Below, one piece after another: positions 42,401 to 60,755 of a stretch of 64,000 nt of DNA (within the stretch, counting starts at the first letter, position 1; each line of letters opens with the position of its first letter). Below the pieces are notes generated by a model. The model was not told the origin of the DNA. It was given only the letters and a program-made list of their open reading frames with translations, and did no database searches. Position numbers and translations under genes: made by a program. This stretch comes from Antedon mediterranea (Eukaryota > Animalia > Echinodermata), in assembly GCF_964355755.1 (NCBI RefSeq), contig NC_092678.1:21841365-21905364 (forward strand). The letters run 5' to 3'.

Positions 42401-45400
42401 AATCAATGCACTACATAACAGGCCTAGTATAATGCAATATACAGTAACTGAATTAATCTGAGTGCCGCATTTAGCCAGTCTTTTGTAAAATTTATTAAAT
42501 TTTTTTAGGTGAAAGTGGCAGGTTTTGTGTTAAATAACATCACTTGCATTTACTTTGGACCTAATAGGTGTGTTTAAAAAACATATTAATGACTGACCTA
42601 CTGTATGTTTATTAAATGGAGGGAATATCTTTTCTATTTAACTTTATAAACATTCACTGTTCACAACTACAGTACTGTATAGGAAAGGTACAGTAGGCGA
42701 GTTATAAAACAAATAATGTCCTACAATGACCTGTATATTCATTGAATGGAGAGAATATCTTTCCTATATTCAACTTGAAAAACATTCACTGTTCACATTC
42801 AACTACTGTATTGGAAAGGTACAGTAGGCGAGTTATAAAACAAAATGTCCTACAATGACCTGTATATTCATTGAATGGAGAGAATATCTTTCTCTTTCAA
42901 CTCATAACATTCATTATTTGTTCTATTTACCTGTAGCTTGGTAAGCAGGGCAACATCTGATGCTGAATTAATGTGAGGCTTAGCTGCTTTTCTGAATTGT
43001 TTCTGAGCAGCATACCGATTCATAGGCCAAATTTTGAAAAGACAATCTAAAATAAACAATATATTATATTATTTCTCGTCTTATAATTAATAATAATATT
43101 TATTTGGTCACCAATGAAAAATAACGAGGAGTGAGAATAGGATTCTGCACTTAATACTTCATACAATACTGTACAACGGTAATATTAAATACTTTAGAAT
43201 CTTATATACTGTATACTGAGGAAATTAAATAATTGTACAGTATATGGTAAACATTAATAACAAATACTGTAAGTAAATGAAATAAAGTGTTAATAAATAT
43301 TAAATTAAATACAGAGCTGTGGTTTTGTGGTCAAGATGTTTGCCTACCAATACACGGTTCTCGGTTCAAATCCACTCCCAGATTTATGTGAAACAATTTA
43401 ATGCACATTCGACCATGCTAACATTCGTATCATACTGTTGACTGTCGGCACAATTGACCGTGCATACAGTGTACAATACAACTGTGCCTATAGTATAGCT
43501 TCTGAATGAGGAAAGTGATAATAAACTGATGACTATAAAATAAATTTGCTGGTCTCACCTCTAAATTTTTTAGGTGGGTTTCTGATGTCCCCTGCATCTG
43601 GTTGAACAACACATCTGTCATCAACCAACCTACACAAAATAAACATGAAAAACGATGAAGACAAAGTTGATTTGAAGATTTTTTTTAGTCTACTGAACAT
43701 AACATAAAATATATTTTACATTCATAATTCAATAAATGAAATATCAGAAAACTAAAAAAAAAATGTTATTTAATAAACATTTTCAACATGTCTACTTTAT
43801 GTTATGTTATTTATTTATTATTCAAAATTTTTTGTTTTGTTTTTGACAAAGTTCTGTTATTTATTTGTTAATTTTATAGCTTAAGTTAGTTAAGATAAAA
43901 GGTACCAAGCTTGATTACCTCCGGCTATATCTTGGCTACCTTTTGTATTGATTGTTTGATACAGTACAATAAAGAAGAAGAAATGGCCAAGAATAATATT
44001 GAAATCTGTAGTGTAATCTCTTCTACTGTGGACTAATTCAAAATAAACACGCATCCGTGATACAAACGATTTCTTTGTTATGGCATTGCAGAAAAAAAAC
44101 AAATTGTGCCAAAATTACATTTAACATACTGTATATAAAAAAATTTATATAAAAAATTATACAATGTATACAGATATATAAATTCCATTTGATAGCAGTC
44201 CATACATTCAGAAAAATTTGCAGTTAAAATACAACATGAGTTTATTCTCGACATTATTCCACGTGGTAGAGTTTATTATAGTTAATTAACCAAGCCTACT
44301 GTACATATAATAATTATTATATAGTATAATAGTATTTACTGTATACTAAAAATAAAAAATAAAATACCGTATATTTCGGTGTATAAGTCGCACCTGTGTA
44401 TAAGACGCACCCCCTTTAAACTGAGAGTAAAATATCTGTATTTTTTATATCGTCGATGTATAGACGCACTTTATATTTCATCAAAACAATGTTTTTTTAA
44501 ATTGTAATCAATATTATTGTAATAATATATTTTGTTATATCTACAACGGCGTCCTTTATTTAGGTTTTTTCTTACCTAGGCTCGGCTGCGCCCAGCCTCA
44601 ACAAGTTCTTTCTAACTTGTTATTCATGAGTTTCGCACCCGCAACATCGAGTGCATGGATATGATGACCGTGTGTGTAACACGCACGTGTGTGGGCTAGC
44701 CTCGCTCGATCATTTCGAGAGGGCGCACGTTTTCACGGACAATCGTATTCGATTAGTATCTATGTATCCGAGAAGTGTGTACGCTAGGTCCATGCTACTG
44801 TATAATCAACTGGCGAATATACTTTCGAATACCGTACACCATGTGGCCGCCAAGAAGGACTTGCGCTGGGGGTACGGCGGTCGGCGATCGTGAGTATAAC
44901 TATAAATAAATACTATTCCAATCGTAAACGTTTACAAATGAAATTTTATCGGAGCGCCTAAAACAACTCCATATTAAAGCCCCATTCCCTACGTTTTTTA
45001 GATCTAATTTAAGATCACAAACTATATTTAATGTAAAAATAATACTATATGATCCTATTGCGATAACTTTTTTCGTCTTTAAACGGTTAAAAATGTGAAA
45101 AATAAGTCGTTTCTAATAATTATAGCGGCCCGCTATAAATCCCAAAATGCATTGCGCGTGGATTGATATTTTTGTTTTTCACCTGTAATTCGCCCACTTT
45201 TCGATCGATCGTGAGGCCAAAACAAATGGAAGACTCCTAACTTTTCAGCGAAAATACCGGGTTTTCCCCAATTTGTATCAACGGAGTCTGGCAAATATAG
45301 AAAGACAATTAATGCAGCAACTATACAACGTCAGGCTAGGTATATAGGTAGCGTACGATGTTCGTACGTTACCGATGTTTACCAGCTAGGCCTACAAAAC

Positions 45401-47752
45401 TAAGCCTAGCTAGGCTAGGCCTAAGACCGTCCACGAGAGGTCGATCGCCGCGAGCTACTTAGGTAGTGCATTGTTTCTCACTTTTTATCATAATTTACCA
45501 TAAAACGTACATTTAAGACAAGGAATGACATGGTTTAATGTTTTTAAAGTGATATATATGTATTATTTTCCAAAAAACGTCCAAAATTGCAGGGAAGGGG
45601 TCTTTAAATGAAGAAATCTTGTCATCATATTTAGTATAACATCACACTAAAATGCCTAGGCAGAAGCAGGTTGCCGTTACGTTAGTTGATGCATGACACA
45701 AACATTGCATTTTGGAAAAGTGAAATGCTAAGAAAATCGTCACTCCAGACATATTCTCTTATTAAGTCTAATCCGTGCCTTGAAAAATATTTATTGGATT
45801 GCACAGACTTTCTAGGATCTAGCCTCAAATTCAAACTACGTTCTAACACCCCTTCCTTTAGTTCACAGGAGTTGTAAGTGGCTTCCTGAATATGATGGTA
45901 TCTGTAAAATGTGTAAGAATGGGAATAGAAGACATTCAACATTTTCTATTCACATGTAACCAACTCAATGGCATAAGGATTGAAGAATATACCAAATTAG
46001 AATATATGTTAATCGATATCATATCAATCATTTAGATGTATGGGAAAATTTTATCTCTGGTGACCTGAACACCAAATTAAATCTTGTATTAGGTGGAACT
46101 GATAACTACTATCATTATTGTATGACGTCGATTCCATATCAAATGTCTTTGATTGTTACTGTAAGCACTATGTTAAAAGAGCATGGGCACACAGATGTAT
46201 TGTTCTAGGCGAGTAATGTTCATATCAATCAAACTAAAATGATTGATATCTATCTCATTATAGTGTTAGGTCTACATTGTTGTTGCCCAATAGAGAGAAA
46301 TGGCGAACCGCGATGACGTCACTCAAATTTCACCGAGTGGGTATAGATTGTAAACAAACCATTTCGCCACATGTTTTTGTATGGGAAATTCCGATGGGTT
46401 GAGTTAAAAAAGTAGGTAGAAAAGAACGTTTAAAACACACATAATAGCAGTATCTTTTTTTTTTTGCAACCCCATAACAATTTTAATGTTATATGGGCAA
46501 ATCTTAACATATTTTATTTTAATTTGGATTGAATTAAGACGCGTTTTTGTTATATACTGTACCCAGCTCTAGGCCCTAGATAGTTGGCCTGTATATGCTG
46601 TAGTACCTCGAGTACTCGAGCCTAGCACGGATCAGGGATTATCGGTTATTATAATAATAATAATAATAATAATATTGGAAATTCGTTATTGCATACTGTA
46701 CTACTACTACTTTAGCTAGGGTGCTGCTAAGCCTCTCCTAGCTAGGTAGTAAGACTAAATAGAGCATCTCTAGTAGATGTAGGCCTAGCATTAGTTTCAG
46801 CTTGACAACTGCTATTTTGTTATGTGGCTAGTGATGCTTCCTTCCTGCAGGGGGCTATCGCCAGTAATGAATACTTGATAACACCATTCTACTATAATAC
46901 TATAGGCCTAGTCTAATGTAGACCTACAGATATGAGATATTTTTAGGAATATGATTGTGAATGATGGATGACTTTTATACATAACAAGAATTATGAGCGT
47001 TACAGCAACAACATTGGTTAGACGACGCCATGATTCATGGGAAATGTGCCGCCCTCAACGGTTTGTTATGATTTTATACCCACTCGGATTTTAGACGCCG
47101 GTTCGCCATTTCTCTCTATTCATTTTATATTGTACAGTTCCTACCTATTCTATTATTGTTTATTTCTTGTAATTTTGTATTTTTAGGTGTCAGTGGGTTT
47201 CCTGCTGACTGTAGTGTTAATTATCAATGGTATTGTAGTTACTGTAGTTGAATTGTTTTGACATTTTGACCTACGTCGACTTTTTATTGTAATTGTTATT
47301 TACTATATCATGTTGTTTTTTGTTGTACATTTCATTTGGATGCTGCACCTTCCATTTGGTCGAGTGCCACTGTTGTAAAAGTTTAATCTCCAAATAAATT
47401 ATTATTATTATTGTAGCTAGCCCGGCCTAGCCCACTCACTCAGGCCTAGCCAACGAGGTGACGATATGTACAGTCTGTGTGGTGAGGCATTTATGTTCGG
47501 TGTATAAGACGCACCCTTCTTAATTTAGAGGTCAAATTTGCGTGTCAAAAGTGCGACTTATACACCGAAATATACGGTACTGCTTATTTTTCTACTGTAA
47601 TGTATTTTTTGTGTAGTTAGGATTTAAAACAAAAATCTAAATACTGACCCAAGTGTACTGATAAATCCATTAACACTTCCTTCTGCATATAATGAAACAA
47701 TATCTCCAAAATGCAAGAAACTGCTACTGGTGGTGGTCGACAATTCCCCCAT
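217..47752 (-). CDS. ITPR1: Inositol 1,4,5-trisphosphate receptor, 5' half (suppressor domain, MIR/IP3-binding core, RIH/ARM region); gene continues beyond the left edge
   Basis: 27 GT-AG exons in consistent phase: 47752-47649 ([35 protein letters not shown]), 43629-43559 ([23 protein letters not shown]), 43046-42931, 21688-21602, 20881-20723, 20303-20205, 18385-18302, 17856-17710, 16468-16373, 16010-15856, 15465-15366, 14940-14780, 14640-14499, 14392-14234, 13740-13568, 13261-13142, 12604-12404, 12089-11838, 8655-8505, 8389-8245, 5632-5436, 5051-4928, 4798-4747, 2469-2304, 2161-1955, 1493-1395, 354-217 (sum 3705 nt). IP3-contact motifs [14 protein letters not shown] and YRKNQ are present. 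The symbol means ITPR-family ortholog; invertebrates usually have a single gene. Confidence 0.97.
1657..1935. repeat. 84-bp tandem repeat, about 3.3 copies, in an ITPR intron
   Basis: acaaattgctt...tgattggctaa recurs at 1657, 1741, 1825 and 1909. Confidence 0.9.
2965..3120. mobile_element. Possible degenerate Tc1/mariner-pogo (Tigger-like) MITE
   Basis: TA|CAGTctacactcc ... ggagaattcACTG|TA; short imperfect TIRs with TA flanks. Confidence 0.35.
4344..4487 (-). CDS. Candidate 144-nt cassette exon of ITPR (48-aa insert)
   Basis: GC-richer island in an AT-rich intron; CAG acceptor and GTGAGT donor; phase 2-2 matching the host intron; open in ITPR frame: (N)[47 protein letters not shown](H). 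Confidence 0.6.
5695..6110. repeat. Degenerate (GAT/ATG)n trinucleotide microsatellite
   Basis: Long gatgatgat run; explains the spurious poly-M and poly-I ORFs. Confidence 0.95.
6586..6665 (+). mobile_element. tRNA-derived SINE head or tRNA pseudogene
   Basis: A box TGGTCTAGAGG and B box GGTTCGAGCCC at tRNA-like spacing; no clean acceptor stem. Confidence 0.55.
7404..7430 (-). CDS. Candidate 27-nt micro-exon of ITPR (EPEPPAENT)
   Basis: tttccttgacCAG acceptor and CAG|GTGAAT donor; phase 1-1 matching the host intron; no stop codon. Confidence 0.6.
7538..7681. mobile_element. PIF/Harbinger-like MITE (family A)
   Basis: TIR AGCTCTGTCTACACTATCAAACT ... AGTTTCATAGTGTAGACAGAGCT with TTA/TAA flanks; internal 20-21 bp units. 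Confidence 0.85.
9595..9810. mobile_element. MITE with about 40-bp TIRs containing ctgcagttactgcag
   Basis: catgtcaacattattgtactgcagttactgcagtaa ... ttactgcagtaactgcagtacaataatgttaacatg; related motif fragments at about 2740, 7125, 7225, 24835 and 29540-29680. Confidence 0.7.
10185..10345. mobile_element. PIF/Harbinger-like MITE (family A)
   Basis: Same TIRs as 7538-7681, preceded by TAA. Confidence 0.85.
12690..13100 (-). mobile_element. Degenerate, interrupted Deu-domain SINE copy
   Basis: Shares ggtttatagtccttatccgaga and cctcgaaccc (B box on minus strand) with 40121-40420. Confidence 0.5.
20929..21183. mobile_element. Two adjacent family A MITE copies
   Basis: ...agtttgatagtgtagacaaggct followed by agctctgtctacaccatcaaact...agtttgatagtgtagacacagct. 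Confidence 0.8.
23014..23325 (-). mobile_element. Penelope-like (PLE) terminal-repeat fragment with inverted ends
   Basis: Perfect 37-bp inverted repeat (23014-23050 and 23289-23325) enclosing a hammerhead-like motif on the minus strand. Confidence 0.65.
23072..23118 (-). ncRNA. Minimal type I hammerhead ribozyme motif
   Basis: Minus strand reads cactc CUGAGGA c GAUCAA agcaua UUGAUC GAAA CG UC aag: CUGANGA core, 6-bp stem II, GAAA, palindromic ACGU stem III, UC cleavage site; stem I has a mismatch. Confidence 0.65.
23955..24102. mobile_element. Family A MITE
   Basis: tctctgtctacac ... tttgatagtgtagacagagct. Confidence 0.8.
24481..24655. mobile_element. Family A MITE (degenerate right end)
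   Basis: tctctgtctacactatcaaact with internal atcactaccatatttgggcat units. Confidence 0.7.
25124..26282 (+). mobile_element. 5'-truncated L1/Tx1-clade LINE (ORF2 C-terminus, zf-RVT zinc knuckle), decayed
   Basis: ORF 25467-26147 has [10 protein letters not shown] and CTFC[11 protein letters not shown]; upstream frameshifts and stops; AATAAA plus poly(A) tail at about 26255-26284; 11-bp TSD AAGTAAACAAT at 25113-25123 and 26283-26293. Confidence 0.92.
26673..26895. mobile_element. MITE with about 40-bp TIRs
   Basis: gtgctagcttacctggataaaccgacaatagcctttctcct ... aggagaaaggctattgtcggtttatccaggtaagttaggcac; an extra solo TIR at about 27085-27121. Confidence 0.8.
27861..28018. repeat. 81-bp direct tandem duplication
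   Basis: accactac(c/g)tatcaccacaccttag... at 27861 and 27942. Confidence 0.9.
28262..28450. repeat. Dispersed repeat, inverted homolog of about 50960-51105
   Basis: caggacactgagctcgccttgccaagataggaact and gtcgcagccacagataaa match the reverse complement in the SUMF1 intron. Confidence 0.75.
29114..29273. mobile_element. Long palindromic (fold-back) element
   Basis: About 70-bp arms (caaataatgaatgttt...gatgaaaggttatatcaac and gttgatataacctttcatc...aaacattcattatttg) around a central gaggcaaagccga. Confidence 0.8.
30150..31550. repeat. 31-bp minisatellite, roughly 40+ copies
   Basis: Unit aagtgcaaatgccacaatattctgtagtcct; degenerate at the left end; short (ttta)n interruption at about 31401-31418. 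Confidence 0.97.
31551..32382. repeat. Variable-length minisatellite built from TACAGTA/TACTGTA pentamer slippage
   Basis: Units tacagtacctct(tactg)n tactatactg, about 30 bp varying in 5-nt steps. Confidence 0.95.
33074..36000 (+). pseudogene. pol: Gypsy pol pseudogene (one 5-bp frameshift, one in-frame stop)
   Basis: Frameshift at 33551-33557 and TGA at 35260-35262 split a single pol into three ORFs. Confidence 0.92.
36220..37071. mobile_element. 852-bp non-autonomous Tc2/pogo-like (Tc1/mariner superfamily) element inserted in the Gypsy LTR
   Basis: TA|CCGTATATTTCGGTGTATAAGTCGCAC ... GTGCGACTTATACACCGAAATATACGG|TA. Confidence 0.92.
38221..38603. mobile_element. TTAA-flanked MITE (Kolobok-like termini)
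   Basis: TTAA|AGCTCCATCCCCTAC ... GTAGGAACAGGGCT|TTAA; internal homology (inverted) to 44978-45603. Confidence 0.8.
40121..40420 (-). mobile_element. tRNA-headed SINE with Deu/Nin-like central domain
   Basis: Minus strand: A box TGGCCGAGCGG, B box GGTTCGAGGC, then gtcttctcggataaggactataaaccgtaggtcc...ttcgagacgagtagggggttaccccggtgt resembling the Deu-domain consensus as I recall it; (TA)n tail. Confidence 0.8.
40535..41715. mobile_element. Non-autonomous DNA transposon (hAT-like CAG termini) with apparent 6-bp TSD
   Basis: TIR CAGACCTTGATTTA ... TAAATCAAGGTCTG; ATTTTG on both flanks; subterminal ggagcgcc/ggagagcc repeats; no transposase ORF. Confidence 0.85.
42594..42905. repeat. About 130-bp tandem repeat, about 2.4 copies
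   Basis: tgacct..tatattcattgaatggagagaatatcttt and aaacattcactgttcaca...ggaaaggtacagtaggcgagttataaaac recur. Confidence 0.85.
44978..45603. mobile_element. TTAA-flanked MITE (Kolobok-like) nested in the Tc2-like element
   Basis: TTAA|AGCCCCATTCCCTAC ... GCAGGGAAGGGGTCT|TTAA. Confidence 0.82.
45689..47412 (+). mobile_element. 5'-truncated LINE 3' fragment (CR1/L2-like tail), nested
   Basis: Remnant peptide [18 protein letters not shown]...LEKYL...KFKLRS typical of LINE ORF2 C-termini; ends in AATAAA(TTA)n; interrupts the host element cleanly. Confidence 0.65.
46289..47120. mobile_element. MITE with 22-bp TIRs nested in the LINE fragment
   Basis: aatagagagaaatggcgaaccg ... cggttcgccatttctctctatt, plus subterminal inverted ccgagtgggtata and tatacccactcgg. 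Confidence 0.85.
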
Positions 47753-48546
47753 CCTCTCTTCTGGGTCCTAAAAATCCAGGCTTCAATTCAACAAATTGCT
47801 TTCCTTTTTTTATTTTCGTGAATCAATTTTCACTATAATTGTTGTGCCTGATTTATTAATTCCAATCCAAAAGCTGATTTACCATCACATAGTTATATCG
47901 CTGCATAGACTATTGTTCATTAAACGAAAATTAAAGTCACATAATTTTTAGGCTATAATTGTAGGCTGCCCTGCAGACAACAGCAACACTTCCGGGGTGC
48001 ACGCACTGCCACCGAGCTCAAGCAGCCAACAAGTCCTAACAAAATCTAGGTTAGGCCTAAGAAGACCAGGCTTACCTGCGTCAATCCTTTCTTATCTATT
48101 TACCTTGCGTTATACATAAACGAATACAGATACACAAAAGCATTTATATAATGTGCTTAGAAGTTCCTTTACTTTTAGAGATAAAGGAATCGCTATTTAA
48201 TCTCTAAAACAGTCAATCCGTCGACACGATGCACACCGCACACACAATCGCCTGTTGATGCTCTCTAGTCAATCAAAAAAGTAACAACAAACAGCCCACA
48301 TGCGCACGGCGGAATAATCCCACTAACACTATGTTTTTTAATAACTTCAAGTGTCTTTTGAATACGTAAGAAGGACATTCAACAAACGGATAGATTTATT
48401 AGAGTTACACATTTATTCTGAAAGTTTCCATTTTATAAAATAAAAGGTTATTTATTTATTGTTGCTTTTCTAAATGATGTAAATAAAAATATAGTTCCCA
48501 AAACATTACACAGCGCCCTCTTGCTGTAAATAAATTGCAAACAAAG
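47753..48546. promoter_or_regulatory. ITPR/SUMF1 bidirectional promoter and 5' UTR region
   Basis: Divergent start codons under 800 bp apart; probable ITPR 5' UTR intron 47971-48075 (CAG|GTAAG donor, ctgcAG acceptor on the minus strand); CTCF-like motif at 48511-48526. Confidence 0.7.
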
Positions 48547-51500
48547 ATGGCAGCCTCCACGATAAAAGTGAATTTGTTGTTTTCTATATTTTCACTCTGT
48601 TTATTCGTAAATGCTTATTCTTCAGAAGTGCTTACAGATGTCGATGCCACTAATTCAAAAGAAGAACAAGACTGTGGGTGTTCTTCACTGAATCGAGAGA
48701 ATTTAGTAAAGAACCAGGACGAAGTACCTGTTGACCAACATCCTGGCGAGGGACAGGATGAGACATCGGCGGCGAAGGTACAGGACGCTAGGCCCCCTGA
48801 GCATAACATTGGAGAAAATGATGGACCCGAGCTAAACCCAGCCCTAAAGTACAGTTCTGAAGCAAATAAAAATTCAAAAAGATGGAATGAAATGGTTTAT
48901 ATAGAAGGTGGAACATTTACAATGGGTATTGATCGTGCAATCATACCTCTCGACGGCGAAAGTCCTTCTAGAAGGGTTACAGTTGATTCATTTTATACAG
49001 ATATATATGAAACAACTAATTCAGAATTTATGAGGTTTATCCAAGCAACTCAGTATTTAACAGATGTATGTGTGTTACTATTTCATATTTCTTTTTATAT
49101 TAATTTGTTATAATAACTTATGTATATTAGTCACTGGTTGGAGGTACACACCTAATTGGTGACTGGCTTAGGCTGCTTTTGTGCTTTCCTGGCAGCTAGT
49201 AACTATGATTTTATGTTTTCTTTTGCGTTGTGTTTGTTTAATTTTTTGATTTGTATTATATTTTGTAAAATATATCTTTTGCCTGAATAAATAATAATAA
49301 TAATAATAATAGTGTATATAGATACTAATGTAAAGGGACAGACATTAAAACACCATCATTGTTCATTGATTTGACGTACCATCTATGTTTTTGCCCACCC
49401 ATGCGTCAATAATTATTTGTAAATGATGCACCTTTCCCAGGAGTAGTATAGTGGGTCATACAATTGACAAGTGCATAATTGTTGCAGATAGTATGGAATT
49501 AGTCAATGCTGTTTCTAGTAGACATTTAGTATAGTTTTTCTGTATTTCAACTTAATACCATAACGCAGAATCAAAAGGAACGTGCTAGCAATGGCAGACT
49601 GGTACAGTACCGAGTGGCTGCGATTCAGAGTAAATCAGTCTAGGACAGACCGTCATGATGATGCCAAATGTCAAAAATAATTCGTATTTGTATTCCAAAT
49701 TACTATTCATGCAACTTCGCAAACTGATAAGAAAAAATTCAAACAAAATATCTGAAAATACACTATAACCACCACCAGCAACATTTTTAAAGCTCTGTCT
49801 ACGTAACACTATCAAACTTTATGTGACAACAAAATGTGTTGTGCCCATATACCATACTTGGGCATACAGTATCATTACCATACTTGGGCATATCATTACC
49901 ATACTTGGGCATATCATTACCATACTGTACTTGGGCATATCATTACCATACTTGGGCATATCATTACCATACTGTACTTGGGCATATCATTACCATACTT
50001 GGGCATATCATTACCATACTTGGGCATATCATTACCATACTTGGGCATATCATTACCATACTTGGGCATATCATTACCATATTTGGGCACATCACACTTT
50101 TTTGTCAAACTGGTTTGATAGTGTAGACAGAGCATTATTTACAACATACAACACAAGATTCATCATAAATGCCACCACAGAAACAATATTTTTTTTAAAA
50201 CTAAATGTAGATTATTATATTTTATCATTTCAGGCAGAGAGGTTTGGAGATTCTTTTGTTGTGGAAATAGCTTTAAGTGAAGAAACTAAGAAAGATATTG
50301 TGCAAGCAGTAAGTTTGTTTAATATTGGTTCCCACTAAGATGCAACGGAAAGGTGTACTGTAAGGACAACGTAAGCGAGTTGACCAATGACAAGCGACAG
50401 TTCGAATAATCTGTGGTCTGTGATTGATCAAATCACTTATGTTGTGCTTAAGTCCTTGCGTTGCGTCCTAGTGGGAATCAAGCTTGACTCACTCTATTTG
50501 AGGAGACCATAGATTCTAAGATTCATTTCTTTACCTACAGGCATCCATCTTCCCTAGGACACCAGAATTCATTCTGGGCAATTTAGGATCTAGGCTAGGC
50601 CTAAGCTATGGCTATGCCTATACAGTACATAGCCTGGCCAAGCCCATGAACTGACACTACTGGCCCAATGGAATAGCACCACATGCACTTACAAGGTCAT
50701 TACGTCATAATACACTCACTGGCTTGTCGACATGAATGTCCATGTCCAATCAAAACACTCATATATCCGTGGACCAGTCGACTACCACCTACATGGACAT
50801 GAATATAGTGCACGTTCGCCCAAATTGAAAAGTCCCTGACCTGGCGTGGTCATATCCAGTGTGTTGGATAATAATAATATTCTCTTTGGGTGTTGCACGG
50901 TGCAGTAACCACCTTTTTTGCACAACTTCCCAAAATACCACTCATAACAAATGAATGGAAGGGTTTATCTGTGGCTGCGACACGATCAGTGCCCACCCCT
51001 AAACAGACACTGCGCACATACATAGTACAGTACTGTTGGTATTTGTCGCAGCCAATTCAAGGACTGTTACAGTTCCTATCTTGGCAAGGCAAGCTCAGTG
51101 TCCTGGTTTATTATAGTATTATTGTATTTTAGGTTGCAGCAGCCCCATGGTGGCTACCAGTGAAAGGGGCTGACTGGAGACACCCTGAAGGGCCTGATTC
51201 AAACATCACTAAAAGGTATATTTTAGTATATATAATGTTATTACTAGTAATGCTGCAGGAGGCATCTTTTGGGTACATAGACTGACCAGCAACCTAACCT
51301 CTCATCTGAAGAATGAGAAGAGTGAGATTTTTTTAGAAAATACATTTCTTTACATAGGTAATGTCTGTTGTGTTTACTTTCTTTATGTAGACTGAATCAT
51401 CCAGTCACTCACATTTCATGGACCGATGCCAATGAATTCTGTAAGTGGTCTGGAAAAAGGCTACCAACAGAAGCTGAATGGGAGTATGCTGCTAGAGGGG

Positions 51501-53342
51501 GTTTGGAAAACAGGTAAAATTCTCATGATTTTATCGTTTTTTCAAACGATAAATTTCTAAGCCACTTCTAGACCCTTGCGCTACCTGTTTTACTGAAAAA
51601 TACTATGGACTTGAACTACTAAACTACAGGAAAAAGGCAATGCCAGAGGGTTCAATATTTGTACTGGTCTCTCGGGGAATGGAGGCTTTCAGGAGCATGA
51701 TAAACCTCAATAGTTTTATGTGTTACCTTATTTTAACTTTGCAGACTATTTCCTTGGGGAAATAAATTTAATCCAAATAATGATCACATGGCAAACATTT
51801 GGCAAGGAACTTTCCCAACAACAAACACTGCTGAAGATGGCTACATAGGCACATGCCCGGTAAGGTAACAATGTTGTGAGAGGTTTTTGCATTATTTAAA
51901 GACCATGAGTTGCATCTTTTGAATCCTGTCAAATAAGATGTTTCGCGTACCTGCAAAATGTGCGCATCCACAGAATTTATGAAATACATAACATTTTCCC
52001 TAATTAGGCTATCGCTCTCAGTAGAGTGATAGCCTATTATTATTGTCAATCATGATATTTTGGATAATTTGTTGTTGGTTGCAGATCTCTAAAATGGCGA
52101 AAGCAGTTGTGTTGTAACTTAGCCAGCAGATACACATATGTGACAATGATTTACTGACTGTTCATACAATCGTACCATCGTACAAGAGTGCTAGCCTACT
52201 GTAAACTAAGCTAATAAATAGCCTGTGCATGTTACGATGCGTTGTGCGATAGACTAACTCGTCAAAGTGACGAGTTAAAATCTATTTTATTTTTTTAATG
52301 TGTGCATTTTTAAAAGTGTAAAATTTGTGTACATGCATATTATGCAATCCACTTTTTTTATTATTCTTAATGAAGTTTATGAGTATATGGGTAGCAATAT
52401 TTTGGATTGGGACACAATATACAGAAATATCAAAGAAACTTTTATATAATGTGGAAAAAAATGCATTTATTTATTTTCTGTTTCTTTCATAGGTTAATAC
52501 ATTTAAACCAAATGGATTTGGTTTGTACAACACAATAGGGAATGTATGGGAATGGACGTCAGATCGCTGGTCCATTCAGCATACCAATGATTCTGTCAAA
52601 AATCCTGTAAGTTTACAGAAACAGATAAAAGATTACAGAATGTATTGCATAAACGATCACTGCTTTAATAACATGCATGGCAACACTACACAGACTAACC
52701 ATTCGATATGTACATGTACAGTATGAAAGTGCATAATAAAGCAGCCTCAGTTTCTGTGCTATATTGACCATAAAAATGCATATAAACATATGCTTTTGCA
52801 AATAATAATTTTTTAAATGAAAATTGGCAAGTTAATTTCAAAATAACAGTTTATGGATGCCTGAGAAATAGCCATGTATGCGCGAGACCTAAAACACCGG
52901 TTGTAATGCGTGAAACTTGCGAGAACTACTTTTGAATTGGTTCTTCGAATTTTATTTATTGTTGGTATAAAAGTAATTTTTTTACAATTGTATGTTTTTT
53001 AGACTGGTCCTCAAACGGGTGCGAATCGAGTGAAAAAGGGAGGTTCTTTTATGTGCCACGAGGTAAGCTCTAGCTAAATGTACTGGGGTGAATGATTGAT
53101 TTTGCAGGTTAAAAATAAATAATTTAAAGGGGAATCGTTTTCAATGCAAAGGTTATCCAAGTTGGAGTTCATATGGCTCAGTGTGGTGGTTTTGCTTTTA
53201 CAATTTTTCTGTTTTCATCTAGTCGTATTGTTACCGTTATCGTTGTGCTGCTAGAAGCCAAAATGACGAAGAAAGCTCCGCTTACAATCTTGGGGTTCGT
53301 TGCGTAGCTGACCACTTACCAGAAGATGCGACAGAAATTTAG
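48547..53342 (+). CDS. SUMF1: Formylglycine-generating enzyme (sulfatase-modifying factor 1), 402 aa
   Basis: Exons 48547-49065, 50234-50308, 51133-51215, 51391-51513, 51745-51859, 52493-52606, 53003-53062, 53223-53342 (1209 nt). Signal peptide, CGC motif, [63 protein letters not shown] with both catalytic cysteines. Confidence 0.97.
49791..50133. mobile_element. Family A MITE with expanded internal 21-bp tandem array
   Basis: Family TIRs enclosing about 11 copies of atatcattaccatacttgggc. Confidence 0.88.
50326..50481. mobile_element. Short Harbinger-like MITE
   Basis: ttggttcccactaagatgcaacg ... cgttgcgtcctagtgggaatcaa inverted ends. Confidence 0.7.
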
Positions 53343-54200
53343 CATCCCCGGTAATGGACTCATCATAAAAACAAAAACGCAAATTCAATGTCTTCCAAAC
53401 ATTTATTTTTTGTTAGTTACTGTTAAAAGTGTTAACTTATTTAAGACTGTCATAGTTTTTCAAAGACTTAAGTTCACAAAAAGTTTTGCGAACAGTGCTG
53501 AAGTGAAAAGTATTTCTCTGAAAAAATTCATAAAATAATCAGAAAAATTATATAGTAATTATAAGGGGTATTTTTCATGCATCTGAATGTTATTATTTAA
53601 AAAATTGATATTTTATAACAAATTAATTCCAATGTTTTTTATGACAATTACGTGCAATAAGTCTATTCTGGATAGAACAGAAATTGAAATGATCATGTAG
53701 GTAGAACCAAATAATGAATGGTCATGTGACACACTATTTAAACTATAATAATCAACTAAGGAGCTACAATAATGTACATGATATTGATTGTATAGTTTAT
53801 ATTAAGGAATGCTTTTATTGTTAACAATCTCTGTTATGTCTTAAGTTATAAAATCGATTTCAACAAAGGCAATAGAGTGTTTAACTTGGAAACCGTGTAA
53901 CATAGTTATAATGGGTCCGCATAACTCACAACGGATGATATACTCTACTATTGCGTGTCACTATTGAATACGTCTCCCCGCAGGAGCTAGACCAAATAGG
54001 ACCAGCCCATTTATCCTTGGGTAAAAAATGCTATAATATGAGAACATTCAGTTGTATTGTTTTACTTTCTTGATATTTATAATATTATTGACTCTGAAAA
54101 CAATTCATTACTGTAGCAGATTTTAATTTATAAAAATAAAGCTTATACATTGAGTTGTACTGTAGCATAAAACATTTAAATATTATTATAAATCAGTAAT

Positions 54201-55385
54201 TTAAAACGCTAATAAATTATGAGGCAGGTATTTTCGGCATTTGTCACTACCGCAATAACATGGTTTTGAATTTTGTATATTTTGTGTCGGTTCTAAATCA
54301 CCATGGTAACTATAACATAACTCTTCTCGACTGCTGATGTCATATTTGGCGAATAAAGCAGCTCGTGGGATTTCATTATTAACTCGAACCGGAAAAACTT
54401 CTAAATTTGGATTGCATGAGTGGTTTATAAACCGTCCAACATTACCAATGTATGTCGGGTCAATAAACGTAATCTTTGTTTCTTTCCCAGCATGCTCTTT
54501 TAAAATTAACAGATAATTCATATCGTCTATAGTTTTTACATCTGTTCTTGATTTTGCTTCAGAATGTCCTAAAATTTCTCCAGCGTACTCACAGACAAAC
54601 TGCCCTTTTCCAATGTTTTGCAATGCTCGCAGACCCAATCCTTTATTTTCTGTCATAAAAGCTTCGAGCTGGATAGCAATACCATTCTGAACGACGCGGT
54701 TTATGCAAGTGTCACCACAGCGACAAGATCCATTGCATTCAAATATTGGTTTTATGTACGGAAGACTAGAGTTTGATGTTATTGTGAGAAGATGACCTTT
54801 GTCATCATAATTTGGTCCGTATGCTTTAATGCATGTACAACCTGGTCCACATGATAACACTGTACAATTGCATCCCTCAAGGGTAAGTTCAGAGGGCTCA
54901 TGTTGGTACCCCTTTCCTGCCACATTTTCGGAAGTGTACTATAAAAACATAAATTAATACAATTCATACACAAAAATGCTTTCTAGTAATTCTGGAAAAT
55001 ATAGTCTATGGATTATTTCTGTTATGCAAAAAAATATATATAGAATTAGGGTGCTTTAAAATTTACACAAATGAGGCCATGTATGGAATGGCTGGTGGTA
55101 GATAGATGTGGAGGGGATACGGCAACCGATCACCACGATGCACGCTGGCAACAGAGGAAGGGGGGTGATCATTGCTTATGGTTTACCATATATAGGCTCA
55201 CTAGCTAACGATAAATACTATTTTATAGTAATAGTAGTAAGCCTAGCCTAGCTAGCACACAGACACAGTAGTGACAATAATATTATTTAACCTTGATTTA
55301 CCTTAAAAGTAGCACCTTGCTCAAGTAGATAATCTTTTGGAATTTTAACTGGAACATTTTCTAATTCATTAGTAAAGTAAGCCAT
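54201..55385 (-). CDS. SETMAR: SETMAR-like histone-lysine N-methyltransferase (pre-SET, SET, post-SET; no transposase), 273 aa
   Basis: Exon 1 55385-55302 (MAYFTNELENVPV...ATFK, GTAAAT donor); exon 2 54938-54201 (YTSENVAG...GCNC...FECNGSCRCGDTCINRVVQ, KGLGL, FVCEYAGE, GRFINHSCNPN, EELCYSY, CYCGSDKCR). Start codon inferred; position next to SUMF1 supports orthology. Confidence 0.9.
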
Positions 55386-58300
55386 TTCAAAATACCACGT
55401 GAAATATTGAAATGCAGAAAATAAACTTGAAATGATATCCCTTGTAAAGTTGTACAATTGTTTACTGTTTATACCAAACCCACCCATGCGTTACAAATTT
55501 ACACCGCGAGTTCTAAGTTTAGTCAATTGAGGGCGACATTACTATTTTCTTGAATATCAGAAACCACTGACAATCTACTGTCAAACAATCGTACACAAAA
55601 TACAGAAACTGGTTGATTCGATAGATATAAAAACCATTACATAAAAAACTTTCACTTATTCTTCAATACATTTTTATTTCAATATACAAAATATTTTGAT
55701 CAAGTAATTTTATAAGTTACTGAATATTATTCCAATTTATGTTATAATAAGCTTATAAAGAAAACATGTACACGTTAAGATGTATCTAACGTAACTGGTT
55801 GGCCCGACAAAAAAACAAAGCAACGTGTTTCTAAAATACATATTTGTTACTTATTTATAAGACACATAGCATAGTTAATATTATTAAATTAAATGTATTA
55901 TGCATAATAACAGAATAGACAGACAGACAGCATACCTGGTTTGACGATTGATGAAAGTTAAATAGATAAATATAAAATAATTAATTTAATGAAAATACAA
56001 TTTATTTCGCTGACATAATCACGTTAATGTTTGAAAAGTTCAGTTTATGCAAATGTCTAATGAAGTTAATAGTTATTTTACAGAAATGGTTAATTATTCC
56101 GTTTGCGCATGATCAGCATCATCGCCGTCTGCTATCACTTCTTTTTCTTCTGTGTCGTCTGCTCCGTTATGCGTACTTTCCTCATTCGGTGACGTCAATG
56201 CATTTGTAGTGGCACATAATGGTGCGTTGATAACAAGAACGCCATTGTCTTGCAGGTTTGATCTCAACTGGTTGACATCTGCGTCAGACGGCAAGTTAAA
56301 CCATTTCGTAAATTCTTCATGCAAGAAGTGTCCGTCACTCTCCTCAATTTTCTTTGCATGAACTTTCAATTTGTGTTCCTCAATGCTCACATTCACGTGT
56401 TCTGGTTTAAAACGTTTCATTGGCAGTTCAACGTGAAATCCACTCTTGGAGTCCGTTTCTGGTTCCTGATTTTGTGAGGTGGTCATGGCCACGGCATCTT
56501 GTTCAGGAGGGTTGGCAGGTGGCATCTCAGATTGAGATGGTTCGTCCTCCTTTTTGTCGGCATTCTCCATCGAATCACTTTCAGTTGAAATTTTTGCCGA
56601 TTTCGCATCTGACGTAATCGACTCTGGCTCGTTGGTGATTGTCTTAAACGGCGCAATAACATGCAGAGTGCCATCCCGAGACAGACTTGATGTCAACTTG
56701 TCTGTCTCAATATTTTCTGGTAAGCTGTACCATTTGAAAACTTCAGAAGAAGCTGTTTCTGATTTAGCATGGATTTTCAGACGGTCTTCATCTAGTGATA
56801 CGTCAATTTCGTCAGGTTTAAAGTTTGACAAATTTAGTCCAACGTGAAATTTGCCTTCTTCTGTTCGAGGACAGCATGCTGCTTTTTTCTTTTTCAATGC
56901 ATCGTTCTTATGTTGTCTCATTTCTTTCCCATCAAATGTATCCAGAAGAAGAAACGTCGGAACTGAGCTTCTACGAAAATGTCTATCGAATCGGTCGTCT
57001 GATAGGGTCCAGGGATTGTAGAATTGAATGCATGTACAACCTGGTCCACATGATAACACTGTACAATTGCATCCCTCAAGGGTAAGTTCAGAGGGCTCAT
57101 GTTGGTACCCCTTTCCTGCCACATTTTCGGAAGTGTACTATAAAAACATAAATTAATACAATTCATACACAAAAATGCTTTCTAGTAATTCTGGAAAATA
57201 TAGTCTATGGATTATTTCTGTTATGCAAAAAAATATATATAGAATTAGGGTGCTTTAAAATTTACACAAATGAGGCCATGTATGGAATGGCTGGTGGTAG
57301 ATAGATGTGGAGGGGATACGGCAACCGATCACCACGATGCACGCTGGCAACAGAGGAAGGGGGGTGATCATTGCTTATGGTTTACCATATATAGGCTCAC
57401 TAGCTAACGATAAGTACTATTTTATAGTAATAGTAGTAAGCCTAGCCTAGCTAGCACACAGACACAGTAGTGACAATAATATTATTTAACCTTGATTTAC
57501 CTTAAAAGTAGCACCTTGCTCAAGTAGATAATCTTTTGGAATTTTAACTGGAACATTTTCTAATTCATTAGTAAAGTAAGCCATTTCAAAATACCACGTG
57601 AAATATTGAAATGCAGAAAATAAACTTGAAATGATATCCCTTGTAAAGTTGTACAATTGTTTACTGTTTATACCAAACCCACCCATGCGTTACAAATTTA
57701 CACCGCGAGTTCTAAGTTTAGTCAATTGAGGGCGACATTACTATTTTCTTGAATATCAGAAACCACTGACAATCTACTGTCAAACAATCGTACACAAAAT
57801 ACAGAAACTGGTTGATTCGATAGATATAAAAACCATTACATAAAAAACTTTCACTTATTCTTCAATACATTTTTATTTCAATATACAAAATATTTTGATC
57901 AAGTAATTTTATAAGTTACTGAATATTATTCCAATTTATGTTATAATAAGCTTATAAAGAAAACATGTACACGTTAAGATGTATCTAACGTAACTGGTTG
58001 GCCCGGCGACAAAAAAACAAAGCAACGTGTTTCTAAAATACATATTTGTTACTTATTTATAAGACACATAGCATAGTTAATATTATTAAATTAAATGTAT
58101 TATGCATAATAACAGAATAGACAGACAGACAGCATACCTGGTTTGACGATTGATGAAAGTTAAATAGATAAATATAAAATAATTAATTTAATGAAAATAC
58201 AATTTATTTCGCTGACATAATCACGTTAATGTTTGAAAAGTTCAGTTTATGCAAATGTCTAATGAAGTTAATAGTTATTTTACAGAAATGGTTAATTATT

Positions 58301-59226
58301 CCGTTTGCGCATGATCAGCATCATCGCCGTCTGCTATCACTTCTTTTTCTCCTGTGTCGTCTGCTCCGTTATGCGTACTTTCCTCATTCGGTGACGTCAA
58401 TGCATTTGTAGTGGCACATAATGGTGCGTTGATAACAAGAACGCCATTGTCTTGCAGGTTTGATCTCAACTGGTTGACATCTGCGTCAGACGGCAAGGTA
58501 AACCATTTCGTAAATTCTTCATGCAAGAAGTGTCCGTCACTCTCCTCAATTTTCTTTGCATGAACTTTCAATTTGTGTTCCTCAATGCTCACATTCACGT
58601 GTTCTGGTTTAAAACGTTTCATTGGCAGTTCAACGTGAAATCCACTCTTGGAGTCCGTTTCTGGTTCCTGATTTTGTGAGGTGGTCATGGCCACGGCATC
58701 TTGTTCAGGAGGGTTGGCAGGTGGCATCTCAGATTGAGATGGTTCGTCCTCCTTTTTGTCGGCATTCTCCATCGAATCACTTTCAGTTGAAATTTTTGCC
58801 GATTTCGCATCTGACGTAATCGACTCTGGCTCGTTGGTGATTGTCTTAAACGGCGCAATAACATGCAGAGTGCCATCCCGAGACAGACTTGATGTCAACT
58901 TGTCTGTCTCAATATTTTCTGGTAAGCTGTACCATTTGAAAACTTCAGAAGAAGCTGTTTCTGATTTAGCATGGATTTTCAGACGGTCTTCATCTAGTGA
59001 TACGTCAATTTCGTCAGGTTTAAAGTTTGACAAATTTAGTCCAACGTGAAATTTGCCTTCTTCTGTTCGAGGACAGCATGCTGCTTTTTTCTTTTTCAAT
59101 GCATCGTTCTTATGTTGTCTCATTTCTTTCCCATCAAATGTATCCAGAAGAAGAAACGTCGGAACTGAGCTTCTACGAAAATGTCTATCGAATCGGTCGT
59201 CTGATAGGGTCCAGGGATTGTAGAAT
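54828..59226. repeat. 2.2-kb near-identical direct tandem duplication (54828-57024 and 57027-59226)
   Basis: Offset 2199/2202; identical duplicated ORFs in the track; only about 4 differences noticed by eye (three substitutions and one 3-bp indel near 58004). Confidence 0.97.
56094..57584 (-). CDS. Chimeric gene: SETMAR exon 1 and partial pre-SET fused in frame to a double alpha-crystallin sHSP (predicted 375 aa)
   Basis: Exon 1 57584-57501 and exon 2 57137-56094; junction ...GCNCTVLSCGPGCTCI-Q-FYNPWTLSDDRFD... at 57024-57027; splice sites copied intact; no stop codon. Confidence 0.8.
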
Positions 59227-59303
59227 CCAAAGCCTGGTTCCCTTCGCCGACAGCAGCTGTGCACTGGTCTATGAACAAAACTTGGTGAATATAAACTGAA
59301 CAT
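58296..59303 (-). CDS. Small heat shock protein with two alpha-crystallin (HSP20) domains, 335 aa, intronless
   Basis: Two ACDs: FHVGLNLSNFKPDEIDV...YSLPENI...SSLSRDGTLHVIAP and FHVELPMKRFKPEHVNV...FTLPSDADV...LQDNGVLVINAP; ATG (MFSLYSPSF) shared with the paralog. Confidence 0.95.
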   Translation of the reverse strand: MFSLYSPSFVHRPVHSCCRRREPGFGFYNPWTLSDDRFDRHFRRSSVPTFLLLDTFDGKEMRQHKNDALKKKKAACCPRTEEGKFHVGLNLSNFKPDEIDVSLDEDRLKIHAKSETASSEVFKWYSLPENIETDKLTSSLSRDGTLHVIAPFKTITNEPESITSDAKSAKISTESDSMENADKKEDEPSQSEMPPANPPEQDAVAMTTSQNQEPETDSKSGFHVELPMKRFKPEHVNVSIEEHKLKVHAKKIEESDGHFLHEEFTKWFTLPSDADVNQLRSNLQDNGVLVINAPLCATTNALTSPNEESTHNGADDTGEKEVIADGDDADHAQTE

Positions 59304-59384
59304 CTTAACAAATAAATTCACACTGGTAGCTTTTTCTTGGTCGTTTTGTTTGCGATTGATGAAATCCCTGGCTTCGCACTTATC

Positions 59385-59613
59385 TTATATAGTCTGATTT
59401 TACATTCGCCACAATTGTAGAACAATCGGGAACTAGTCGAAGAATCATCACGATTGGTCGAGAATTATAGAGGGCACTATTTTGATCTATTTTTAGATCG
59501 CTTGTAAATCCGCCCTCTATGGTACAGAATATTCTAGATGGTTCTGCCTGGTTCCCGAGTTTTCTGCTGTGTGACGATATTTCTTAATATGGAAGCTGGC
59601 GAGAATATAAATA
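59385..59613. promoter_or_regulatory. Bidirectional heat-shock promoter: two outward TATA boxes and HSE arrays
   Basis: TATATAA (minus, 59385-59391) and TATAAATA (plus, 59606-59613); in-phase nGAAn/nTTCn array aGAAt aTTCt aGAtg gTTCt gcctg gTTCc cGAgt tTTCt at 59526-59565; weaker aGAAc aaTCg gGAAc at 59419-59433. Confidence 0.85.
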
Positions 59614-59711
59614 ACCACAATGAGAAGGGTTAGGCATTAATCGTTAAAACAGAAAAAAGTAAACACAATATTAACAAATTGACTGCAAAGAGAATACTAT
59701 ACATTGGAAAA

Positions 59712-60755
59712 ATGTTCAGTTTATATTCGCCAAGTTTTGTTCAGCGCCGACCAGCAGTGTGTTGCCGACGAGAACCAGAGCTTGGATTCTACAATTCGGC
59801 ATGGAGATCACCATCATCAACAGAAGACTGGCTCGGCTTGGGACGTTTTGCTAACAGGTCGGTTCCAACGTTCCTCCTGATGCTGGATTCATTTGATACA
59901 AATGACAGAAAGAATAACAGAAAACGAAAGAATAATGATACATGTGAGGCGGCGGCAACGAAAAACACAGCATGTCAAAAAAAGGGAGAAACATTTCACG
60001 TTGGTTTCAATTTGTCAGGCTTTAAACCTGACGAAATTAACGTATCACTAGATGAAGACCGTCTAAAGATCCATGCTAAATCAGAAAAAGCTTCTTCTGA
60101 AGTTTTTAAATGGTATAGCTTACCAGAAAACATTGAGACAGACAAGTTGACATCAAGTCTGTCTCGGGATGGCACTCTGCATGTTATTGCACCGTTTAAG
60201 ACAACCACCAAAGAGCCAGAGTCGATTACCTCAGATAGGAAATCGGCAAAAGTATCAATTGAAAGTGATGAGTCGATGGAGAATGCCGACAAAAAAGAGG
60301 ACGAACAATCTCAATCTGACACGATGCCACCTCCTGCAAACCCTGAACAAGAAGATTCAGTGATCATGACCACTACCTCACCACCACCAGAACCAGACTC
60401 CAAGAGTGGATTTCACGTTGAACTGCCAATGAAACGTTTTAAACCAGAACACGTGAATGTCAGCATTGACGAACACAAATTGAAAGTTCATGCAAAGAAA
60501 ATTGAGGAGAGTGACGGACACTTCTTGCATGAAGAAGTTACGAAATGGTTAACCTTGCCGTCTGACGCAGATGTCAACCAGTTGAGATCAAACCTGCAAG
60601 AAAATGGCGTTCTTGTTATCAACGCACCATTATGTGCTACTACAAGTACACTGACGTCACCGAATGAACAAAGTATGAAAACTGGAGCAGACGACACAGA
60701 AAAAAACGAAGTGGTAGTAGACGACGCTGACGCTGATCATGCGCAAACGGAATAA
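59712..60755 (+). CDS. Small heat shock protein with two alpha-crystallin domains, 347 aa, divergent paralog
   Basis: Same two-ACD architecture, near-identical ACDs and the same C-terminus DADHAQTE; ATG at 59712. Confidence 0.95.
   Translation: MFSLYSPSFVQRRPAVCCRREPELGFYNSAWRSPSSTEDWLGLGRFANRSVPTFLLMLDSFDTNDRKNNRKRKNNDTCEAAATKNTACQKKGETFHVGFNLSGFKPDEINVSLDEDRLKIHAKSEKASSEVFKWYSLPENIETDKLTSSLSRDGTLHVIAPFKTTTKEPESITSDRKSAKVSIESDESMENADKKEDEQSQSDTMPPPANPEQEDSVIMTTTSPPPEPDSKSGFHVELPMKRFKPEHVNVSIDEHKLKVHAKKIEESDGHFLHEEVTKWLTLPSDADVNQLRSNLQENGVLVINAPLCATTSTLTSPNEQSMKTGADDTEKNEVVVDDADADHAQTE

Follow-up and report, generated by a model that had tools for sequence, protein, structure and literature searches.

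A window of 64,000 nucleotides from the genome of the crinoid Antedon mediterranea (RefSeq assembly GCF_964355755.1, contig NC_092678.1, positions 21,841,365 to 21,905,364), which is AT-rich with a GC content of 34%, contains a chimeric gene in which the 5′ end of a SETMAR-like gene is joined in frame to most of a double-domain small heat shock protein (sHSP) gene. The chimera is a real and young open reading frame (ORF) and is most likely a heterozygous standing variant. We consider it probable, as an overall reading, that the 2.2-kb tandem duplication from which the chimera arose is recent and present on one chromosome copy, and that the chimera would be transcribed from the SETMAR promoter and spliced, with a product that is a near-neutral by-product rather than that of an adapted gene. 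An earlier reading of the same DNA, made from the letters alone (the sequence-only reading), had called the chimera a newborn gene; its reality and youth are upheld here, but it appears to be a segregating variant rather than an established gene. All positions below are numbered within the window.

The duplication, its seam and the chimeric gene

Comparison of the window with itself by BLAST revealed a head-to-tail duplication, with positions 54825–57024 matching 57024–59226 at 99.68% identity over 2203 columns. The exact limits define two units. Unit 1 (54828–57024, 2197 bp) contains the 5′ part of the intact SETMAR gene and the sHSP-derived part of the chimera, and unit 2 (57027–59226, 2200 bp) combines the SETMAR-derived portion of the chimera with the 3′ portion of the intact sHSP gene. 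The seam itself has two inserted bases (57025–57026) that belong to neither parent, and the same letters are present in contigs of two sequencing runs, X1 and X2 (see below). The units differ by three substitutions (55215/57414, 56149/58351 and 56296/58498) and by one 3-nucleotide indel (55805/58004). The boundaries of the duplication fall inside two different, parallel genes, one in SETMAR exon 2 and the other in the sHSP ORF, so that the duplication and both breakpoints proposed by the sequence-only reading are borne out by the self-comparison and the exact limits.

The breakpoints lie in unrelated sequence, and an identical 3-nucleotide word forms both the last SETMAR bases and the first sHSP bases that were kept. 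A clean join on this word would be five bases shorter and out of frame; the 2-nucleotide insertion makes the frame continuous. The seam would have arisen through repair that was either non-homologous or mediated by microhomology and that added a short templated insertion. When random blunt joins between SET exon 2 and the sHSP ORF were enumerated (736,936 breakpoint pairs), 8% were open and retained both alpha-crystallin domains, and 32% were open; an open frame alone is therefore no evidence of selection.

The chimera consists of SETMAR codons 1–65 (28 + 37), one junction codon, and sHSP residues 27–335. It lies on the minus strand, as do all of its parts. The SETMAR 5′ untranslated region (UTR) and a short upstream region occupy 57585–57870, with no site resembling a heat-shock element (HSE), and an RNA-like exon 1 contig extends to 57722 (equivalent to 55523). 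Exon 1 (57501–57584) is a copy of SETMAR exon 1, with 28 codons and a GT donor, and is followed by a 363-nucleotide GT-AG intron (57138–57500), a copy of the SETMAR intron. Exon 2 (56094–57137) contains the 37 remaining SETMAR codons, the junction codon, sHSP residues 27–335 and the stop codon. Within it are found the five-cysteine first loop of the pre-SET cluster (57030–57071; chimera residues C51, C53, C58, C62 and C64, with the ligand order taken from PMC3447885), the first alpha-crystallin domain (56646–56852; about residues 124–192), and the second (56223–56438; about residues 262–333), which contains a T-to-N change at 56296. The sHSP-derived 3′ UTR (55670–56093) has polyadenylation signals ending at 56006 and 55678, and the sHSP contig of run X5 ends at 55670/57869. 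The chimera thus has an ORF across the junction together with a promoter region, splice sites, a stop codon and 3′ signals, all of which are copies of the parental ones, and both parent genes are intact ORFs on either side of it. Translated separately, the two exons give the prefix and the suffix of the 375-residue protein XP_071959985.1, which RefSeq already predicts under the name "small heat shock protein p36-like". The in-frame fusion of SETMAR exon 1, intron and five cysteines to both alpha-crystallin domains had been read correctly from the sequence alone, as judged by the gene structure and the Pfam matches, and so had the survival of both parents.

The coding differences between the copies are two replacements: T to N in the chimera, which corresponds to the FTLP-to-FNLP change noted earlier, and E to G in the parent sHSP, which had been overlooked. 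The contigs of the examined runs carry the other allele at both sites, with the derived letters present in the assembly only, and each replacement therefore looks derived in its own copy. Two replacements with zero silent changes are what chance gives (P = 0.62) and are uninformative on selection.

Read-derived contigs and the state of the allele

Nine public runs contain part of the region, and the contigs of six of them (X1, X2 and X5–X8) were compared. This evidence consists of contigs, not raw reads; the contigs were built separately from the assembly of the window and drop rare variants. Runs X1 and X2 represent one sample (S1), possibly the assembled animal, and their library types are not on record. 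A seam contig, in which 57023 is joined to 54828 with letters identical to window positions 57024–57026, is present in both X1 and X2 (two of the four runs in one comparison), at depths of 31.1 and 32.9 respectively. Other contigs of these two runs stop at the two breakpoints, as they must at a branch point of the graph. Since the seam contigs were built separately from the window assembly, a false haplotype duplication or another assembly artefact is unlikely, and the junction is real DNA. The depth across the duplicated part is raised; the sequence-only reading had named a halved depth, together with a missing seam, as the sign of a false haplotype duplication, and its view of the junction as genuine held up on both counts. 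Of the other runs, X6 (depth 2) contains only the SETMAR parental continuation, and X8 has almost no cover of these genes.

The depths in X1 were 45.8 and 44.8 for the flanks, 74.8–74.9 for the duplicated part, and 31.1 for the seam. With three copies, the model gives a one-copy, and hence seam, depth of 29.6; with four, the duplicated part should reach 90.6 and the seam no less than 45. The Poisson likelihood ratio of the heterozygous over the homozygous state is 3 uncorrected and 41 after correction for heterozygous words; both values are rough, as contig depth is not equivalent to copy number. In X2, from the same sample, a haplotype of the SETMAR flank differs by eight substitutions and four gaps over 874 bp; the closest of these lies about 400 bp from the breakpoint. 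Compared with the four differences in 2200 bp between the units, this divergence makes it unlikely that the second chromosome shares so young a duplication. Contigs of X5 (RNA-like, from another sample of the same organism) cross both breakpoints unbroken (53498–54940 and 57869–59467), and a contig of X7, from a second organism that is 90–95% alike, crosses the SETMAR breakpoint unbroken; these contigs show the parental forms and are no proof that the duplication is absent there. We regard a heterozygous, segregating allele as very probable.

Expression, predicted protein and alternative explanations

HSE-like sites, defined as having at most one mismatch, occur 13 times in the window, and four of them are in the spacer of about 410 bp between two head-to-head sHSP genes, where they form a cluster (59420–59564) accompanied by TATA-like boxes at 59391 (minus strand) and 59606 (plus strand). 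Resampling of the spacer gave a mean of 0.09 such sites, and 0 of 2000 resamples reached four. None was found in the upstream region, exon 1 and intron of the chimera (57138–57870). With a cluster at the sHSP promoter and none near the chimera start, the promoter swap is, by its sequence features, real in anatomy. However, the chimera sits in the ancestral place of SETMAR, directly behind the HSE-bearing sHSP gene, and so may not be free of heat-shock influence. The distance from the HSE cluster is 1836 nucleotides to the chimera start codon and is now 4035 nucleotides to the intact SETMAR. X5 contigs leave a gap of only 147 nucleotides (57722–57869; also 55523–55670) between the 3′ end of the sHSP gene and the 5′ end of SETMAR, so that read-through under heat would be possible. 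The earlier claim that the chaperone had been moved off its HSE promoter is thus sound in anatomy (four against zero HSE-like sites), but heat-shock independence does not follow at a distance of 1836 nucleotides. Through the duplication, the intact SETMAR gene now follows the chimera instead of a heat-shock gene and could in this way be protected from read-through triggered by heat.

None of the nine runs is recorded as RNA, a blank that counts neither for nor against expression. X5 is taken to be RNA, a guess backed by a spliced GT-AG joint at 53060–53221 in SUMF1. Its coverage of the parent sHSP and of SETMAR exon 1 agrees with transcription of both parent genes. The X5 contigs, apparently from a non-carrier, have no joint listed for the SETMAR intron. 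The chimera would be transcribed and spliced like SETMAR, and its transcript would escape nonsense-mediated decay, as the stop codon is in the last exon.

The chimeric protein contains two HSP20 stretches (Pfam PF00011, 94 bits) and no SET or Pre-SET Pfam match; with no SET domain, it would be unable to methylate. The fold model displays two beta-rich domains, with a predicted local distance difference test score (pLDDT) of 75–90 by block, and comparisons of sequence and of fold both place the two-domain Tsp36 as the closest solved structure. The chimera would be expected to fold two alpha-crystallin domains and could join sHSP oligomers. Residues 1–120 have a pLDDT under 50 in a model built from an alignment of six sequences without true homolog rows for the SETMAR part, and the parent SETMAR model (14 sequences, no zinc) reaches 41–65 over residues 1–60; comparison of these two models says nothing on the folding of the new N-terminus. 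A mixed SETMAR and sHSP alignment was set aside because SET residues had been forced to align with the alpha-crystallin domains.

Five of the nine pre-SET cysteines are retained in the chimera. The three zincs of the MSL2 CXC cluster are bound by Cys 1–4, by Cys 1, 5, 6 and 7, and by Cys 3, 6, 8 and 9, and strict conservation of this ligand order with the pre-SET domains of SUV39 proteins is described (PMC3447885). By analogy, the chimera would supply every ligand for one zinc but only some of those for the second and third. Since all four ligands (Cys 1–4) of one zinc are kept, binding of zinc or another metal by the N-terminus is possible, and to this extent the Cys-rich, potentially metal-sensitive start suggested by the sequence-only reading stands. 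The 65-residue extension would be mostly unfolded and incapable of building the three-zinc pre-SET cluster, and may bind one zinc. The first 26 sHSP residues are lost, and this N-terminal block is conserved in all five non-chimeric crinoid sHSPs aligned. In Drosophila Hsp27, deletion of the whole N-terminal region is reported to abolish chaperone activity, whereas removal of a four-residue motif raised it (PMC5433770); by this analogy, the effect of the N-terminal swap on chaperone activity could go either way. The FGFG motif of DmHsp27 resembles the letters at the sHSP breakpoint and is not conserved in the crinoid alignment.

Several other explanations were considered. An assembly artefact, whether a false haplotype duplication or a chimeric read, would agree with the 99.7% identity of the copies, with the absence of the copy-specific substitutions from the contigs of all examined runs, and with the origin of both supporting runs in one sample; against a seam with non-parental letters in two runs at a depth of about 31–33, and a unit depth that is raised rather than halved, it is hardly credible. 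A duplication carried on both chromosome copies of this animal and widespread or fixed in the species, with the chimera as an established locus, would account for an X2 seam depth (32.9) near that of the left flank (30.4) and for X1 ratios that exceed the naive values of 1.5 and 0.5. Four copies, however, would predict 90.6, more than the observed 74.8, a divergent haplotype is found about 400 bp from the breakpoint, and the X5 contigs run unbroken through both breakpoints, which together render this state very unlikely. The seam could also be real and the chimera silent or harmful, either because read-through from the sHSP gene occludes it or because its protein, unstable and bearing free cysteines, is degraded or poisons the oligomers of sHSPs. 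The short gap of 147 nucleotides in X5 contigs would fit this explanation, as would the low frequency of chimeras in Drosophila, which has been read as reflecting mostly detrimental effects (PMC5460883). Nevertheless, SETMAR ancestrally had just as close a neighbor, and X5 has a contig over SETMAR exon 1; several post-duplication or inter-haplotype differences imply that the allele is not being removed at once, and we judge this outcome very unlikely.

The chimera may instead be a working new gene, that is, a heat-independent double-domain chaperone with a one-zinc, metal- or redox-tuned start, kept or raised by selection. Its complete expression anatomy and the retention of both domains speak for such a role, as does the retention of all four Cys 1–4 ligands of one zinc (PMC3447885). 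Published parallels point the same way: an sHSP that lacks part of its N-terminus can be a more active chaperone in the absence of heat (DmHsp27, PMC5433770), expression is changed in 24 of 76 Drosophila chimeras (PMC5460883), and an earthworm double-domain sHSP is described with a foreign THAP domain (PMC13226371). The allele is nonetheless likely heterozygous, with the seam not seen in the contigs of the other sample; a conserved N-terminal block (5/5 non-chimeric crinoid sHSPs aligned) and four of nine cluster cysteines are gone; and both coding differences are replacements of the kind that chance gives (P = 0.62), one of them in the parent copy. We therefore consider a working gene unlikely, and quite unlikely a zinc-regulated (Cys 1–4), heat-independent chaperone encoded by an allele that is spreading by selection and is still polymorphic.

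The favored reading, a recent duplication on one chromosome copy with a near-neutral chimera, also has evidence to contend with. The X1 ratios (1.65 and 0.69) fall between the naive models, and in X2 the similarity of seam and left-flank depths (32.9 and 30.4) would by itself fit a homozygous state, although the duplicated-to-flank ratio of this run is 1.5. The seam contig probably has only 30 letters per side, just under the bridging rule, and the support comes from one sample (X1 and X2), possibly the assembled one, with one other sample of the species having usable cover. An allele that is in frame and retains both domains (8% of random joins, with the microhomology join out of frame) favors retention a little. 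Judging from the four differences between the copies, the allele either has been present for some time or originated from two different haplotypes. Finally, we only infer that the chimera is expressed.

The locus and comparison with known systems

The genes of the window are arranged, from left to right, as an inositol trisphosphate receptor (ITPR), SUMF1, the intact SETMAR-like gene (minus strand), the chimera, the intact sHSP gene (minus strand), the spacer, and an inverted sHSP paralog (plus strand). The intact SETMAR-like gene (54201–55385, minus strand; exons 55302–55385 and 54201–54938) encodes 273 residues (RefSeq XP_071959983.1) with nine pre-SET cysteines, SET and post-SET regions and no transposase, and it adjoins SUMF1; its best match in the PDB is human SETMAR (3BO5, E 1e-71). 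The parent sHSP gene (58296–59303, minus strand) is a single exon encoding 335 residues with two alpha-crystallin domains. The older inverted paralog (59712–60755, plus strand; 347 residues) lies outside the duplication.

In human, ITPR1 neighbors SUMF1 and SETMAR. The adjacency of human SETMAR and SUMF1 is described in PMC8994322. The corresponding neighbors in the window are the ITPR exons (about 1900–21000, minus strand), SUMF1 (48487–53340, plus strand) and SETMAR (54201–55385, minus strand). SETMAR exon 2 is covered by a single X5 contig (53498–54940) that continues in the direction of the SUMF1 3′ end, and the two genes, which converge, may thus overlap at their 3′ ends. In the head-to-head sHSP pair (58296–60755), identity is 93–98% in the blocks coding for alpha-crystallin domains and far lower in the N-terminal and linker blocks, which suggests, at the sequence level, gene conversion or strong constraint on these domains. 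The related crinoid Anneissia japonica has three similar double-domain sHSPs with consecutive accessions on contigs of equal length, which suggests that this locus has undergone repeated duplication in crinoids. In A. japonica, the homologs of SETMAR and of the sHSP are on two different contigs (376,676 and 771,543 nucleotides); the evidence for ancestral adjacency thus extends no further than this genus.

Repetitive elements are found elsewhere in the window. Region 32978–36000 is the pol region of a long terminal repeat (LTR) retrotransposon (reverse transcriptase, RNase H and integrase) with a frame change near 33526–33571 and a stop at 35260–35262, and it is adjoined by a satellite-like array (about 30150–32400). 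A non-LTR retroelement fragment with a zf-RVT domain is located at 25458–26147. Several inverted repeat pairs of 180–620 bp with 81–91% identity, possibly ends or copies of DNA transposons, occur at 36218–38534 and 44362–47579.

The closest parallels in mode of origin are the chimeras of Drosophila yakuba and Drosophila simulans described by Rogers and colleagues (PMC4069613, PMC5460883). There too, duplication boundaries fall in the coding sequences of different, parallel genes, and the middle gene receives the promoter and 5′ end of one parent and the 3′ end of the other, with both parents intact. According to these reports, 20 lines each of D. yakuba and D. simulans yielded 78 and 38 tandem-duplication chimeras, respectively, such chimeras make up about 10% of gene-capturing tandem duplications and are often segregating (PMC4069613), and, besides the changed expression noted above, they occur at lower frequency than whole-gene duplicates (PMC5460883). 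The present case differs in its crinoid host, its base-resolved seam and its partners, a histone methyltransferase and a stress chaperone.

The anthropoid SETMAR-Hsmar1 fusion, invoked by the sequence-only reading, is well established (PMC9062482, PMC6715855). It involves the same SET gene family and, likewise, has the SETMAR promoter and 5′ exons driving a foreign C-terminal domain. However, the primate fusion arose by transposon insertion, retains the whole SET domain in its main isoform and is fixed, having taken the place of the single gene, whereas the crinoid chimera arose by tandem duplication, has no SET domain, leaves its parent intact and is probably polymorphic. The primate-type architecture, with a mariner transposase behind an intact SET domain, is not found here: the parent ends at residue 273, and the chimera has HSP20 domains. 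As an explanation the primate fusion was therefore rejected, given its transposon origin and its retained SET domain, and it serves as an analogy only. Short human SETMAR isoforms, in which a partial pre-SET start is described as joined to the transposase (PMC8994322, PMC5354774), are a nearer architectural parallel.

Double alpha-crystallin sHSPs are known in flatworms and annelids, the earthworm protein with the THAP domain among them (PMC13226371). The chimera shares the arrangement of two HSP20 domains per chain with Taenia saginata Tsp36 (PDB 2BOL), with p36 or major egg antigen-like proteins, and with the earthworm protein, but differs from them in that the first 26 residues are replaced by 65 of SETMAR, the proximal HSE promoter is lost and an intron is gained. 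Compared with the Zn3Cys9 cluster of SUV39-type pre-SET and CXC domains as described in PMC3447885, the chimera keeps the five-cysteine first loop with the right spacing, but the four-cysteine second loop and the SET domain are absent, so that at most one of the three zinc sites would be full.

The five-cysteine pre-SET motif was found in none of the best 150 of 955 sHSP-like representatives, and PF00011 in none of 57 SETMAR homologs (150–478 residues). A weak search with chimera residues 1–75, which had only four candidates, returned the parent only. In the literature searched by titles and abstract openings, no paper on this chimera was found. The process itself is well known, and the pairing of pre-SET and HSP20 sequences is a new instance of a well-described class of chimeras.

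The "third sHSP" annotated automatically in this genome (XP_071959985.1) is thus a fusion, and probably not a fixed gene. Given how well the process is known, the locus offers a good case study rather than a new principle: a clean, base-resolved gene birth by exon shuffling in a little-studied class of animals, with both parents intact. Most likely, carriers and non-carriers coexist within one species, which would open the first phase in the life of a chimeric gene to direct tests.

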